DNA from: Candidatus Omnitrophota bacterium
Lineage (GTDB): Bacteria > Omnitrophota > Gorgyraeia > Tantalellales > Tantalellaceae
DNA: 64,000 nt
Direction: 5' to 3'
NCBI GenBank assembly: GCA_015231405.1
Contig: JADGBR010000001.1
Span: 91,964-155,963 of the forward strand
Shown one piece after another: positions 30,956 to 36,195 of the stretch. The notes below the pieces were generated by a model, which searched no databases, was not told the origin of the DNA, and saw only the letters and a program-made list of their open reading frames with translations. How positions within the stretch are numbered: position 1 is the first letter of the stretch; every line of letters starts with the position of its first letter. The translations under genes were made by a program, and so were the position numbers.

Positions 30956-32294
30956 AGAATATCCCTCTGTTTGCATTGTCGGCAGGCCTAACGTAGGAAA
31001 ATCTTCTCTTTTTAACTGGTTCGCCGGAGAACGGAAAGCCGTTGTCCTTGAAGAGTCCGGCACGACCCGGGACAGGGTCGAGGCTGTCATTGAATTGTTC
31101 AGGAGAAAGGTGACGGTCTCGGACACAGGAGGGTATCTTCAGGAGGATACGGATAAAATGTCGGTAATGGTGAAGCAGCAGATCAGGAACGCTATCAAAG
31201 AGGCCGATGTCCTTATCATGGTGACCGACGCTCAGGCCGGCGTGGTCCCGGCGGATATTGAAATAGCGGCTATTATCAGGAAAGCGGATAAGCCGGTGAT
31301 CCTCGCCGTCAATAAGGCCGATAACCGGGCGCTGGATGCCGATTCGGTCGATTTCTTTCAATTGGGGCTTGGCGACCCTTTACCGGTATCATGCCTTCAC
31401 CGAAGGGGCATGGAGACGCTCAAGGAGGCGGTCCGGAAGGTCATGCCGGATGAGTTCGTGAGGTCGGATAACAACGATAAAAGTTCCATAAAAATAGCCG
31501 TAGTCGGCAGGCCCAATGTCGGGAAATCATCCTATATAAACTACATATTGAAAAGGGACAGGGTCATAGTCAGCGATATGCCTGGTACTACCAGGGATTC
31601 GGTCGATATTTTCTTCAATGACGGCAAGAACGACTATACGCTCATAGATACCGCGGGAATAAGGCATTCGAGGAAAATATTCCGGGCAGTCGACGTTTTC
31701 AGCATCATGAGGTCAAAGGGATCCATAAAAAGGGCCGATGTAGTGATATTTCTCCTGGACTCCGTTGACGGCGCGACGCATGACGATCTGGCTATATTAA
31801 GGTATATAATGGAGAACGGTAAAGCGTGTATCGTTATCATAAATAAATGGGACCTTGCCCGGGGGGTTGAGGATGTGGATCAGGAAGGATACCATGAAAG
31901 CCTGATCGCCGCGTCGCCCGTATTCAGGGTATTTCCCGTATTCTTTGTCTCTTCGGTATCAGGTAGGAACGTGATGAAAAGTTTCGCATCCGTAAAACAG
32001 CTGAACGATGCTCTTGACCGGGAATTCCAGACGTCTTCCCTGAACAAGATATTCGAAAAGAACGATCCCTCCAAAGTCCCAGTCCCCAGGAGCGATAAAA
32101 GGCCGAATTTCATGTATATTACGCAGACCGGAAAAAGACCTGTAGAGTTCACGTTCTTCGTGAATAGCGCCGGGGCAGTAACCCCCGGGCATCTTAGTTA
32201 TATCGAGAATGTTTTAAGGAAGAACGTTGAGCTTGAAGGGATACCAATATCCATTAAGATACGTGCGGCAAAAGAAAAAAAGGAGAGGAAGTGA
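30948..32294 (+). CDS. der: ribosome-biogenesis GTPase Der (EngA)
   Basis: Two GTPase domains (GRPNVGKSSLFN, GRPNVGKSSYIN) plus a KH-like C-terminus. Confidence 0.9.
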   Translation: MDKEYPSVCIVGRPNVGKSSLFNWFAGERKAVVLEESGTTRDRVEAVIELFRRKVTVSDTGGYLQEDTDKMSVMVKQQIRNAIKEADVLIMVTDAQAGVVPADIEIAAIIRKADKPVILAVNKADNRALDADSVDFFQLGLGDPLPVSCLHRRGMETLKEAVRKVMPDEFVRSDNNDKSSIKIAVVGRPNVGKSSYINYILKRDRVIVSDMPGTTRDSVDIFFNDGKNDYTLIDTAGIRHSRKIFRAVDVFSIMRSKGSIKRADVVIFLLDSVDGATHDDLAILRYIMENGKACIVIINKWDLARGVEDVDQEGYHESLIAASPVFRVFPVFFVSSVSGRNVMKSFASVKQLNDALDREFQTSSLNKIFEKNDPSKVPVPRSDKRPNFMYITQTGKRPVEFTFFVNSAGAVTPGHLSYIENVLRKNVELEGIPISIKIRAAKEKKERK

Positions 32295-32905
32295 TCATCT
32301 TAATTATTTTCGGCGTAGTACTGGCCTATTTGCTGGGGTCTTTGCCGACGGCGTATATATTCGGTAAAACACTGAAAAATATCGATATCAGGGAGCACGG
32401 GAGCGGCAATATGGGCGCGACCAATGTTTTCAGAACAGTCGGGAAAACTCCCGGGTTGATAGTTCTTGTCATCGATTTCCTGAAAGGGCTTTTAGCCGTC
32501 ACTATGATCCCGATCATCCTGAAAAGATTTATTCCTGCATACGCGGAAAATAGCGCGTGGATACTTATATTATTTGGGGTAGCCGTAATATGCGGCCACG
32601 TTTGGACTATATTCCTTAATTTCAAAGGGGGTAAAGGCGTCGCGACGACAGCCGGTGTCCTTGCCGGAATATCGCCGCTTATCCTGATCCTATGTCTGGC
32701 GGTTTTTTCGACGGTATTTTATATATGGAGATATGTTTCCCTTGGTTCGATAATTGCCGCGTTATTCCTCCCGATATTTGCAGTGATCTTCAATAACAAT
32801 ATCTACTATGTTTTATTTTGTTCGGGGTTAACGATACTCGCTATAATAAAGCATAGAGAGAATATCAGGCGGCTTATCAGGGGGGAGGAGAAGAGACTGA
32901 TATGA
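32291..32905 (+). CDS. plsY: glycerol-3-phosphate acyltransferase PlsY
   Basis: GSGNMGATNVFR, NFKGGKGVAT; multi-TM. Confidence 0.9.
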   Translation: MIILIIFGVVLAYLLGSLPTAYIFGKTLKNIDIREHGSGNMGATNVFRTVGKTPGLIVLVIDFLKGLLAVTMIPIILKRFIPAYAENSAWILILFGVAVICGHVWTIFLNFKGGKGVATTAGVLAGISPLILILCLAVFSTVFYIWRYVSLGSIIAALFLPIFAVIFNNNIYYVLFCSGLTILAIIKHRENIRRLIRGEEKRLI

Positions 32906-32987
32906 GAATGGTGTCTACGGGAATATAAAATACGATTTTAATCAGTTAACCCTGCCAAGTAAACAAAAAAAAAGCCAGTATTAATTC

Positions 32988-33016
32988 TTGATTTCACTTC
33001 CCTGGTGAAGTATAAT
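32988..33016 (+). promoter_or_regulatory. near-consensus sigma70 promoter TTGATT-17-TATAAT in AT-rich islet
   Basis: TTGATT at 32988-32993, 17-nt spacer, TATAAT at 33011-33016. Lies in a visibly AT-rich spacer 88 nt upstream of the orphan ORF at 33104. Confidence 0.6.
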
Positions 33017-33103
33017 TAGTCTTGTTAACCAACTTAAAAGGAAAATAATAAATAAAATACTTTTACAAATCTTTAAAAAAGAACTAAAAAAAAGCAGGTT
33101 AAA

Positions 33104-33469
33104 ATGAAGCAACTAGTATACAAAACACTTGAGGGGAACAATCCAAGAAAAAAAGAAGTTTCGATACAGGAGATCGAAGATTGCGCCATAACTCAAGTGA
33201 AAAAAGAATGGACCTGCAAATATTTTGTAAAATCAACTCATGTCTCAAGATCTGAAGAGGACCTTAATAAATGGGTCTCAAGAAATAAAAAAAGCGATAA
33301 GAACGTGAAGAGTTGCCATCTGTTCAAGGAGATCGATACTGAGCGGAATACCACAAAAGTCGTATGTAAAGTTCTTGGCGAATTCTTCGCCATTACCGGT
33401 CTTACGGTAATAAAGATCGTTTATATCAATTCATTAAAAATATTCATGTCAAACACAAAGGGGAATTGA
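33104..33469 (+). CDS. hypothetical Lys-rich protein (orphan, no recognisable domain)
   Basis: 121-aa ORF in a region much more AT-rich than its neighbours, driven by the strong promoter above. Four Cys residues, basic, hydrophobic C-terminal tail FFAITGLTVIKIVYI. No family recognised by eye. Confidence 0.45.
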   Translation: MKQLVYKTLEGNNPRKKEVSIQEIEDCAITQVKKEWTCKYFVKSTHVSRSEEDLNKWVSRNKKSDKNVKSCHLFKEIDTERNTTKVVCKVLGEFFAITGLTVIKIVYINSLKIFMSNTKGN

Positions 33470-33657
33470 AGTGAAGGAATTATTGCGTTCATTCATGGTA
33501 TTTATGGCATTCGTAAAGCTCAGCATGATCAAGCTGCAATTATCCGATTGCGAGAATAAAGTACGGGCCAGATAAGCAGATAATTTGACGGGTTCGCAAA
33601 TCCCAGTCAATTACCTCCTGGACCTGAATGGTGTGTCGCCTTTCACGGTCAGGACAA

Positions 33658-33690
33658 ACGGAGATGGCGTAAGCCGTCTCCGTTTTTTTT
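33658..33690 (+). terminator. rho-independent terminator (11-bp stem, GUAA loop, 7-8 U)
   Basis: ACGGAGATGGC-gtaa-GCCGTCTCCGT followed by TTTTTTT. Ends the transcript that starts at the 33011 promoter. ORF 33585-33803 spans it and is therefore rejected. Confidence 0.8.
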
Positions 33691-34008
33691 ACCCACTGAT
33701 GGATCTAGTCCAATTTCCCCTCTCCACTATCCACCAATTCTCCGAGCACTACCCATTATCAATTTTCAACCCAACCCGGTATCTCATCCACACACCTCAT
33801 TGATAGTGTAACAATTTATGCTGACTTTCATCATGCGCGCGGCGAGGTGTGGACTTCCTCTTCAAGCCTTCCCCTGGGAATTTAACAACGACTTTAACAT
33901 GCCGTTTTTAGACCTTGCGCATTCACCCCTCCTCCGCCTTCGGATTCGGAGGATGAGCCGCAAGCAAGGAGGTTGTCATAAAAACGTCATGTAAAAGGCT
34001 AAAATTTC

Positions 34009-34024
34009 CAAAGGGGCCCCTTTG
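34009..34024. repeat. perfect 16-bp palindrome CAAAGGGGCCCCTTTG
   Basis: Self-complementary with no loop, so it is a DNA-level dyad, a typical dimeric-regulator site. About 350 bp upstream of the XRE gene. Confidence 0.6.
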
Positions 34025-34104
34025 CTTAAAGAGGATATCCACACCTTGACCCTTCCCGTAATGAAAAATCCCAGGAATCTCCAGGTCTTTGCGAAAGGGG
34101 TGAG

Positions 34105-34258
34105 GGCGTGAAGGAGATGGGGTTCTTCGTAAGGCACTTTGCTGTCCCGATATCCAAAGTAGCCTTGTGCGTGGACCTTGCAAATGTTACAGCCGAGGAC
34201 ACAAACCCAACAAGAAGTTTGCAAAGTGCCTGTAGAAGGTTCCCATCTCCTTCACGCC
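34105..34258. repeat. 154-bp element bounded by imperfect 38-bp inverted repeats (MITE-like or long hairpin)
   Basis: Arm 34105-34142 vs arm 34221-34258. Perfect matches of 17 bp (GGCGTGAAGGAGATGGG / CCCATCTCCTTCACGCC) and 10 bp (GGCACTTTGC / GCAAAGTGCC) flank an 11-bp mismatched patch. 78-nt centre. Confidence 0.55.
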
Positions 34259-34338
34259 ATCGTCACGAGAAGCATGAAACTTTTGAAAGTCAGCAAGGTT
34301 CTTGACAGTATGGATCCCGATGGATCTCATTGATACTA

Positions 34339-34367
34339 TTGCGTAGCGGAATTGACGGTGATATACT
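34339..34367 (+). promoter_or_regulatory. putative promoter TTGCGT-17-TATACT placing the TSS at the XRE ATG (leaderless mRNA)
   Basis: The -10 TATACT ends 6 nt before ATG 34374. No Shine-Dalgarno precedes the ATG. Confidence 0.35.
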
Positions 34368-34373
34368 GACTCC

Positions 34374-34742
34374 ATGAGTTTTTCACGCAATCTTAGATCC
34401 GCCAGGATGAAGGCGGGAATGTCTCAGAAAGTTCTTGCGCTTGGATTGAAAGTGAAACAGTCCACGGTATCAAAATGGGAACAGGGGAAGAGGACTCCCG
34501 GAATGAAGAAGATATCCCTTATCGCCCAGTCGCTTAGAACTTCGATATCGAGCCTGGTAAAATATAAAAAGGAAAACGTTCTTTTATCCCATGACCTGGC
34601 AGTGAGACTCCTGGACCAGTTGAACGCGGCTTCGTTCATTGTCGAGCGCCTCATTAAGGGTGATACTCCTGACAGGGGTGTCCTGATCGCAGCTCAAAAA
34701 CAGATCAGGGACGCGGTAAAGATATTGAGGTCTTCAAGATGA
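34374..34742 (+). CDS. XRE-family (Cro/cI-type) helix-turn-helix transcriptional regulator
   Basis: LRSARMKAGMSQKVLALGLKVKQSTVSKWEQGKRTP is a canonical HTH_XRE. 122 aa. The stop overlaps the next gene start (ATGA). Confidence 0.8.
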   Translation: MSFSRNLRSARMKAGMSQKVLALGLKVKQSTVSKWEQGKRTPGMKKISLIAQSLRTSISSLVKYKKENVLLSHDLAVRLLDQLNAASFIVERLIKGDTPDRGVLIAAQKQIRDAVKILRSSR

Positions 34743-36124
34743 GATATACCCTTAAACTCTTCACGATCGTCATAGCGTTAATATCGTTACAGCACTGGCA
34801 GGCCAGGGCCGAGGAGAGCGACAGAGATCTGGTGATGAAAGGAGCCGATCTCGCGCGAAAAGGGAGGTACGACGAGGCGGTGAACGAGATCGATAAGGCG
34901 CTTAAGCTCAATTCAGGGAACCCTGCGGCCTATTACATCAGGGGGGTAGCCTGTTTTTATCAGGGTAACACAAAAAAGGCGCTGGGAGATTTCGATAAGG
35001 CAATAGACCTGAACCGTAAATACGCTGACGCGTACAATGGAAGAGGACTTGCCCTCGCCTCCGCCGGTCTGGCGGATCGCGCCTTAGAGGATTTTAATAC
35101 GACTTTAGAGCTTGACCCAAAGAACGCTTCGGCGTACATGAACCGGGCTGTTACTTATTTTAAGAAGAAACAATATGAGAAAAGTATGGCGGACGTCAAA
35201 AAAGCCGAATCGCTTGGAGCTAAAGTTAATTCAAGGTTCCTTTCCGATCTGAATATTTCCGTTGCGATCGATAATTTAAGGACGTGGGCCTTTGGTTTTA
35301 AAGGCGGGATACAGTTAAACCGAAAAGGAGGAGTTATGGGAATTCTGATAGGTATCGCGATAGTCGTTATCGCTTTCTCTTTGAGGATAATCCAACAATA
35401 TGAGACAGGAGTGGTTTTCCAGCTTGGGCGGTATTCAAGGACGCTTCATCCCGGTTTGAATTTCATAATACCGGTAATAGAGCACGCAAGGGTGGTCGAT
35501 ATGAGGATATCGACACATGACATACCCGAGCAGCAGGTTATAACCAAAGACAATGTTCCGGTAGCTATTAACGGGGTCGTGTATTTCAAGGTAGAGAACG
35601 CGCAAACGGCGGTCATAAAGGTGCAGAATTACACGTACGCCGTTTCACAGTACGCGCAAGCCGCGCTTAGGGATGTGGTAGGCGGGATGACACTCGACGA
35701 CCTTCTGACGGAAAGACAGAAGATCGGCGAAAAGATCGAGGAGAGCATACAGAAAGAGGCGGCATCCTGGGGCTTGCTGGTAACGGCGATTAAACTCCAG
35801 GATGTAAATATGCCCGAGGACCTTAAAAAGATCATGTCCAGACAAGCTTCCGCTGAAAGGGAAAAAAGGGCCACGATAACAAAAGCCGAAGGCGATAAAA
35901 TGGCCGCTTTGAATCTCGCGGAAGCGGCAAAAACTATGGCGGCGTCTCCCGGCGCCATGCAGCTAAGAACGCTTCAGACTATCGACGGCCTTGGGCCAAG
36001 CCCCTCAAATACCGTAGTTCTAGCGGTGCCGGTAGATATACTCGAACTAGCTCGGGGGCTTAATATCCAATTTTCGGAAAATGCTCAAAAACAGGTCAAC
36101 GTTGCGGTTGAAAAAAGGTCTTGA
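34739..36124 (+). CDS. signal peptide + TPR repeats + TM helix + SPFH/band-7 (stomatin/prohibitin-like) domain fusion protein
   Basis: N-terminal signal peptide (LFTIVIALISLQHWQARA); about 4 TPR units (AAYYIRGVACFYQGNTKKALGDFDKAIDLN...). TM helix GILIGIAIVVIAFSL, then SPFH core (VITKDNVPVAINGVVYFKVENAQ...AALRDVVGGMTLDDLL...) with a coiled-coil tail. Confidence 0.8.
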   Translation: MRYTLKLFTIVIALISLQHWQARAEESDRDLVMKGADLARKGRYDEAVNEIDKALKLNSGNPAAYYIRGVACFYQGNTKKALGDFDKAIDLNRKYADAYNGRGLALASAGLADRALEDFNTTLELDPKNASAYMNRAVTYFKKKQYEKSMADVKKAESLGAKVNSRFLSDLNISVAIDNLRTWAFGFKGGIQLNRKGGVMGILIGIAIVVIAFSLRIIQQYETGVVFQLGRYSRTLHPGLNFIIPVIEHARVVDMRISTHDIPEQQVITKDNVPVAINGVVYFKVENAQTAVIKVQNYTYAVSQYAQAALRDVVGGMTLDDLLTERQKIGEKIEESIQKEAASWGLLVTAIKLQDVNMPEDLKKIMSRQASAEREKRATITKAEGDKMAALNLAEAAKTMAASPGAMQLRTLQTIDGLGPSPSNTVVLAVPVDILELARGLNIQFSENAQKQVNVAVEKRS

Positions 36125-36195
36125 GTTTTACGAAGATCAGCATTATATTAATATAAGTTGTCATGTTTAATGATCTTATGTGGAAGGGGGGGGCG

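Follow-up and report, generated by a model that had tools for sequence, protein, structure and literature searches.

Two bacterial mRNAs are the closest described parallels to the 3'UTR reported here. The icaR mRNA of Staphylococcus aureus carries the anti-SD element UCCCCUG in its 3'UTR (PMC3868564), and in hbs of Bacillus subtilis the 5'- and 3'-UTRs interact (PMC5737220). The unit analyzed in this work shares with them a C-rich, anti-SD-like sequence that is conserved in the mRNA 3'UTR and displayed between hairpins shortly ahead of the terminator. It differs from them in its motif, UUACCUCC, in its covarying flanking hairpins and in its phylum, and we found no specific complementarity to its own 5'UTR other than generic SD pairing.

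Other parallels concern the proteins encoded. CydX, at 37 aa, is a small membrane accessory subunit of cytochrome bd (PMC4325964), and like it the unit specifies a conserved hydrophobic peptide, of 33-39 aa, that adjoins and is translationally coupled to a partner gene in a membrane-related cluster. The two peptides share no sequence similarity. Unlike CydX, the peptide described here has a soluble basic protein and not a membrane enzyme as its partner, and its hydrophobic stretch, with conserved Lys and Gln, is only a borderline transmembrane helix. The arrangement is also like that of toxin-antitoxin or toxin-immunity pairs, in that two small coupled ORFs, one of them hydrophobic and cationic, have their own promoter and terminator. 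In contrast to toxin-antitoxin pairs, this locus is a single one, kept in place and passed on vertically, with no toxin or antitoxin domain, and the two-gene coupling is not family-wide, the small ORF being absent in distant members.

Omnitrophota are abundant, mostly uncultured, ultra-small bacteria, and their genomes are full of genes of unknown function. In this study, we examine a stretch of 64,000 nucleotides from one such genome, a Candidatus Omnitrophota MAG (hereafter the window), in which plsY (32291-32905; Pfam G3P_acyltransf, E=4e-58) lies immediately 5' of an AT-rich stretch. An earlier note on this DNA had interpreted the stretch as a self-contained expression unit. Comparison with related loci (designated L001 and so on) bears this out: a conserved promoter and a terminator belong to the unit itself, and its two ORFs are translationally coupled. 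It is a conserved operon for small proteins that, though undescribed, looks ordinary; its 3'UTR motif is of interest.

Results

Layout and composition of the unit

The unit consists of the following features, given 5' to 3'.

32988-33016, + strand: sigma-70-type promoter, with the -35 element TTGATT at 32988-32993, a 17-nt spacer and the -10 element TATAAT at 33011-33016 (10/12 match)
33023-33103, + strand: AU-rich 5' leader of ~80 nt, from alignments of related loci
33104-33469, + strand: ORF121, encoding 121 aa with 15.6% Lys and pI 9.5, of an unannotated Omnitrophota family
33471-33575, + strand: mini-ORF with a GTG start, encoding a cationic hydrophobic peptide of 34 aa (34 codons plus stop); SD AAAGGGGAA
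33586-33609, + strand: 3'UTR hairpin P1, TGACGGG / CCCAGTCA with one bulge, from the MFE fold
33611-33618, + strand: anti-SD-like linker TTACCTCC, with CTCC invariant in 13 loci and TTACCTCC nearly so
33627-33644, + strand: 3'UTR hairpin P2, GAATGGTG tgt CGCCTTTC, with a GUGU loop
33656-33693, + strand: intrinsic terminator, with a 13-bp stem (33656-33685; 7 GC), a 4-nt loop and T8

The TTGATT-17-TATAAT promoter that the earlier note had placed at 32988-33016 is present, and it is the best sigma-70-like match within 32000-35000. By itself such a pattern is within chance, since AT-rich DNA gives many (10 sites seen vs 5.5 +/- 2.7 expected). Across 16 related loci the -35 CTTG and the -10 GTATAMT are conserved and kept in register, and in most relatives the -35 begins ~10 nt past the plsY stop. 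Having its own promoter and terminator, the unit is not by design co-transcribed with plsY or gpsA.

The sharp drop to AT-rich DNA after plsY, reported earlier from the window, was also recovered. GC content is 0.27 at 32906-33103 and 0.36 in ORF121, vs 0.44-0.49 in plsY and der and a mean of 0.492 +/- 0.017 for the window's 58 long ORFs. Codon usage had been proposed for comparison with the genome; GC3 is 0.41 for ORF121 vs 0.565 +/- 0.034 for the window's long ORFs. The low GC recurs in relatives: the 120 nt 5' of ORF121 orthologues have a GC content of 0.24-0.33 in every genome, at a host GC of 0.41-0.54. GC3 of the orthologues follows that of plsY in most genomes, and in the window alone ORF121 GC3 is clearly under its neighbours (0.41 vs plsY 0.52), a gap larger than in the other genomes. 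Because the leader is AT-rich whatever the genome GC, the dip appears to be a conserved property of the leader and of a Lys-rich coding sequence, and not a foreign signature. We infer that the low GC reflects the Lys-rich protein together with a functionally AU-rich leader.

The leader contains a conserved GTTA(G/A) box near its start and a near-invariant box, CTTTAAAAAAG, at 33071-33081. The latter has the family consensus TTTAAAAAG (palindromic CTTTTAAAAG in relatives), stands 20-25 nt 5' of the start codon and is found also in the distant members L020 and L055. The SD of ORF121 in the window is weak (AGCAGGT). Most relatives have a short, attenuator-like leader hairpin with a U-run, which in the window is degenerate. 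In the leaders of L002, L007, L010 and L012-L014 a hairpin followed by 6-8 U lies ~40-90 nt 5' of the ORF121-like start, just past the promoter, which itself adjoins the plsY stop; possible roles of this hairpin are to end transcripts reading through from plsY and/or to attenuate those of the unit. As a separate observation, GAATGGTGT follows the plsY stop directly (32906-32916) and recurs, possibly by chance, at 33627-33638, where it forms the 5' arm and loop of P2.

ORF121 lies directly after plsY in related loci

Related loci were gathered with a 6-sequence ORF121 alignment. The order lepB-pgsA-der-plsY-ORF121-miniORF-gpsA is fixed in 16 related loci, which come from genomes and metagenomes, and every related Omnitrophota locus examined has an ORF121 orthologue, at 37-70% identity, in the identical place after plsY. 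Identity between the window and its closest relative, L001, is 70% for ORF121, 65% for plsY, 71% for gpsA, 59% for der and 74% for lepB; since these values are similar, ORF121 has diverged in step with its housekeeping neighbours. Distant family members, which share 21-27% identity with the protein of the window, are again the next gene after plsY, in the following orders.

L018: pgsA, plsY, ORF121 family gene, giant protease-like gene
L020: pgsA, plsY, ORF121 family gene, gpsA, with der missing
L054: lepB, pgsA, plsY, ORF121 family gene, adenosine-kinase-like gene

The family is thus found directly after plsY in 19/19 loci having upstream sequence, over a range of 21-70% identity. The plsY-ORF121 adjacency appears to be the most persistent one, because distant members keep plsY while their other neighbours differ.

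Near the unit we found no signature of mobility, that is, no flanking repeats and no integrase, transposase or other mobility gene; the nearest tRNA is 4.3 kb off, past gpsA. The earlier note had taken the unit for a horizontally acquired module inserted between housekeeping genes, a claim that is largely refuted because the fixed plsY adjacency persists even in distant members, and the divergence is like that of the neighbours. Nor did its suggestion of a small toxin/immunity or phage-derived module hold, there being no match to a toxin, immunity, defence or phage family. It had also asked whether plsY adjoins an XRE gene in relatives; neither L001 nor L006, the closest relatives, has this gene. 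Against its own reading it had named orthologues conserved in relatives and bearing a housekeeping annotation. Conserved orthologues were found (37-70% identity), and none has a housekeeping annotation, all being labelled 'hypothetical'. Judged from the related loci, the unit appears to be vertically inherited and Omnitrophota-specific, and not an insertion.

The ORF121 protein and its predicted structure

In agreement with the earlier description of a Lys-rich, 121-aa ORF without recognisable domain (15.6% Lys), profile searches gave no match to ORF121 in Pfam, PHROG, PADLOC, NCBIfam or PDB sequences. An identical protein is on record for a Candidatus Omnitrophica MAG, annotated as hypothetical, and five close homologues share 48-70% identity with ORF121. 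Searching 1.8 billion representatives with a profile returned 57 proteins at E<1e-3, nearly all of ~120 aa and matched over their full length, and the named source organisms of the family are Omnitrophota. When 53 members were searched against Pfam, 0/53 matched a relevant family. Differences at codon positions 1:2:3 among six orthologue pairs (202:139:363) indicate purifying selection. By these searches, the ORF121 family appears to be previously unannotated.

A putative Zn-binding CCHC site (C38, C71, H72 and C88) is invariant in the six closest orthologues and not family-wide, and was rejected as a family feature. P0036 (294 aa) was rejected as a family member, its match being a tandem-repeat false positive. 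In L014 (4001-4400) the ORF121 orthologue is broken after 97 codons, with the rest in another frame and the mini-ORF and 3'UTR motif intact; this frameshift is either an assembly error or a pseudogene.

AlphaFold2, given a 53-sequence alignment, produced a model with a pLDDT of 92.6 and a pTM of 0.76. The predicted fold is β3-α-β3, with strands at residues 2-9, 16-26 and 30-47, a helix at 51-61 and strands at 68-78, 83-98 and 101-117. The structural check suggested in the earlier note was performed with this model and Foldseek, and no known fold was matched in the PDB or BFVD; the best TM among PDB hits was 0.41 (neurexophilin). The commonest type among the top Foldseek hits was the SRPBCC/Bet v 1-like (helix-grip) fold (PYL2, CoxG), which often binds lipids or other hydrophobic ligands. 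Like it, the ORF121 model has a long curved antiparallel β-sheet packed on a helix; unlike it, ORF121 is shorter, by 30-40 residues, and has no long helix at its C-terminus. Membership was rejected, as TM was only 0.13-0.28 (best PYL 0.28), rmsd was 12-18 Å (mostly 12-14 Å) and E was at least 0.02.

A micro-protein encoded downstream of ORF121

The mini-ORF starts 1 nt past the ORF121 stop. The hydrophobic, GTG-initiated peptide reported earlier is exact, and its placement needs correction: the ORF spans 33471-33575 with 34 codons, not 33472-33582 with 36. A homologous ORF of 33-39 codons is present in 14/14 close-clade loci, starting -3 to +21 nt from the stop of the ORF121 orthologue, and is preceded in each (14/14) by a purine-rich SD. 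The core A..KL..IK.Q....E aligns gap-free, and the codon-position differences (76:49:109) have the pattern of a coding sequence under purifying selection. A search of NCBIfam gave no match. The peptide carries a net charge of +4 to +6 in 13/14 loci (+1 in L009), has a low hydrophobic moment and reaches a Kyte-Doolittle 19-residue maximum of 1.2-2.1, a borderline value for a transmembrane helix. Such hydropathy and charge would be compatible with membrane association. The conservation argues that the mini-ORF is a real conserved micro-protein, overlooked by gene callers.

The distant family members L018 and L020 lack the mini-ORF, and the ACCUCC motif is likewise absent from distant members. 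Because of these absences, neither the mini-ORF nor ACCUCC is essential to the core function of the family.

Structure and conservation of the 3'UTR

The strong terminator with which the unit had been said to close (13-bp stem at 33656-33685 plus T8) was confirmed, and most relatives have its equivalent. In most of them P2 itself is the terminator, and the window, L001 and L009 have a separate one after it; the U-run after P2 is weak or absent in a few loci (e.g., L012, L014 and L017). A hairpin at the P1 position occurs in 12/13 loci, with differing stem sequences. Between P1 and P2, the ACCUCC linker is unpaired in most MFE folds. Its fuller form, ACCTCC, is present in 10 of 13 loci, and the motif has the form (C)UUACCUCC(AG).

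For P1 and P2 together, 92.5% of cells were paired and 12/17 pairs had changed on both sides, figures that lean toward structure, as the alignment was fitted to the model and 7/9 sequences were seeds. By helix, 6/8 pairs had changed on both sides in P1 (helix 1) and 6/9 in P2 (helix 2), the latter with 97.5% paired. As controls, 0/500 shuffles reached this level, and slid controls gave 40-63%. A covariance model, R1 (seven loci), recovers L006 (42 bits) and L008 (24 bits) and found no further copy of the motif in the window or the loci. A pattern scan of viral contigs did not find the motif, and a search of Rfam at E<=1 gave only a sub-threshold CsrC match (16 bits vs a gathering score of 61), which is the terminator hairpin. 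These results argue that the 3'UTR holds an undescribed structured RNA motif with compensatory base-pair changes.

RNAduplex energies of ACCUCC with the unit's own ribosome-binding sites were -4 to -12 kcal/mol, and those for control genes were -1 to -17, so that pairing in cis with its own sites was not distinguishable from that with controls. An antisense gene whose SD would be GGAGGTAA, the 3'UTR motif read on the other strand, was rejected, as the antisense open stretches (28-74 codons) are non-homologous and L006 has none. A hairpin with an unpaired ACCUCC may be seen as reminiscent of 16S rRNA helix 45 and the anti-SD.

DNA between the unit and gpsA

Compared with L001 and L006, in which the terminator is followed by a CBM-like gene or directly by gpsA, the window has ~2.4 kb of additional DNA, at 33690-36160. 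The features of this block, and the CBM-like gene after it, are as follows.

33690-33800, + strand: C-rich, G-poor tract with GC skew down to -0.26; rut-like if transcribed on the + strand
33819-34295: nested inverted-repeat element of ~480 nt, with 12-nt perfect outer arms, a 23-nt-arm hairpin and a 41-nt-arm hairpin
34374-34742: XRE-family HTH gene; best NCBIfam hit, an RstR-like phage repressor, at 47 bits and below cutoff
34739-36124: TPR-SPFH fusion gene, absent, like the XRE gene and the structured element, from L001 and L006
36163-36822 (6952-7575 in L001): CBM-like gene, 219 aa, between the unit and gpsA

The inverted-repeat element folds far better than shuffles on either strand (z = -10.05 on +, -8.8 on -), and G-U counts show no strand preference. 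It has no match in Rfam, no second copy in the window or 51 loci and no phage or plasmid match, viral contigs giving chance matches only. Candidate identities are a large ncRNA, a site of folded ssDNA and a palindromic mobile element in decay. In metagenomes the XRE protein has no close relatives, only distant ones sharing the HTH. The CBM-like protein has a weak match to a mannanase galactose-binding-like domain (E=1e-4, below cutoff), and it was found in the window and in L001, the window's closest relative, only. From this comparison, a lineage-specific insertion seems to have brought the structured element and the XRE and TPR-SPFH genes to their place behind the ORF121 terminator and ahead of the CBM-like gene. 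If anything near the unit was acquired recently, it is the block at 33690-36160 and not the ORF121 islet. Elsewhere, L002 (6569-7150) and L020 (5455-5545) have repeated palindromic motifs of the CCTGTCCC(GAAAAGC) type in intergenic DNA 3' of the unit, which look REP/MITE-like and unrelated to the element of the window.

Discussion

The promoter, ORF121, the mini-ORF, the terminator and the AT-rich drop are all real, and comparison with relatives shows them to be under selection. Comparative sequence analysis defines the transcription unit, its ORFs, its leader and its 3'UTR structure, and from these we infer role and control. We think it probable that this is a vertically inherited bicistronic unit with a conserved leader and 3'UTR, whose products have an accessory or regulatory role tied to PlsY and are controlled post-transcriptionally. 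Its own sigma-70 promoter would give a transcript with an AU-rich leader, encoding the 121-aa basic β-sheet protein and then the translationally coupled, 34-aa cationic hydrophobic micro-protein, and ending in a 3'UTR of hairpin P1, an unpaired ACCUCC and hairpin P2 or terminator. ORF121 and the micro-protein would most likely act at the membrane, because the ORF121 gene always lies directly after plsY within a pgsA-(der)-plsY-ORF121-(gpsA) phospholipid cluster, even where its other neighbours differ. The micro-protein may be the membrane partner of a soluble ORF121, and together they may assist or regulate PlsY or glycerophospholipid synthesis. A functional homologue was not found in the searches; the plsY adjacency and the hydrophobic micro-protein suggest the functional tie to PlsY or phospholipid synthesis. 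Control may be exerted in the leader, by the TTTAAAAAG box and, in relatives, the attenuator-like hairpin with its U-run, and the anti-SD-like motif of the 3'UTR might act in cis or in trans by covering a ribosome-binding site. We propose such post-transcriptional control, by leader and 3'UTR, on the analogy of icaR and hbs.

Other explanations differ in how much of this they dispute. That the conserved 3'UTR is a terminator and stability element only, its ACCUCC having no anti-SD or regulatory role, is a substantial possibility, though not the one we favor: P2 itself serves as terminator at most loci, the predicted pairing of the linker is no stronger with the unit's own ribosome-binding sites than with controls, and distant family members lack the motif. 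Termination, however, needs neither a conserved unpaired C-rich linker nor an upstream P1, and CTCC is invariant in 13 loci (ACCTCC in 10) while the flanking stems vary by compensatory substitutions. A serious rival of a different kind, which we nevertheless regard as somewhat unlikely, is that ORF121 is a small basic protein that binds nucleic acid, in association with the nucleoid, RNA or the ribosome, and controls its own expression via the TTTAAAAAG box, the 3'UTR motif or both, its position by plsY and der being historical and not functional. Its pI of 9.5, its Lys content (15.6%) and the long twisted β-hairpins of the predicted fold would fit such a protein, a palindrome-like leader box and a structured 3'UTR would suit an autoregulatory site, and the neighbouring der encodes a ribosome-assembly GTPase. 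On the other hand, we found no likeness to any DNA- or RNA-binding family or fold, distant members lose der nearby and keep plsY, and the hydrophobic micro-protein would be left unaccounted for.

Horizontal acquisition of the unit, as a small toxin/immunity module, a type I/II toxin-antitoxin system or a phage remnant, could draw on its low GC (0.36 in the ORF and 0.27 upstream vs 0.49 in the window), its two small, tightly coupled ORFs, the second of them hydrophobic, and its own promoter and terminator. We consider it very improbable. The unit follows plsY in 19/19 loci with upstream sequence and diverges much as the flanking housekeeping genes do, it has no Pfam, PADLOC, PHROG or NCBIfam match and neither flanking repeats, an integrase nor an adjacent tRNA, and its leader stays AT-rich regardless of genome GC, with a 3'UTR motif unmatched in viral contigs. 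We also think it unlikely that the more ambitious form of our proposal holds in full, namely that a new fold or family and its micro-protein form a phylum-specific component of the PlsY step and that their mRNA carries a new class of 3'UTR element acting as an anti-SD decoy or as a 3'UTR-derived small RNA. The vertically inherited unit with an accessory or regulatory tie to PlsY is the reading that we favor.

For genome scanning, the locus is a caution that a sharp fall to AT-rich DNA around an orphan ORF need not be foreign and can stem from an ancient, conserved regulatory leader next to a Lys-rich gene. For the biology of Omnitrophota, the unit is a compact target that combines an unannotated family with a confident model, a micro-protein and an undescribed 3'UTR motif, all locked to plsY. 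If what its neighbourhood suggests is true, it would be a lineage-specific component of bacterial phospholipid synthesis.
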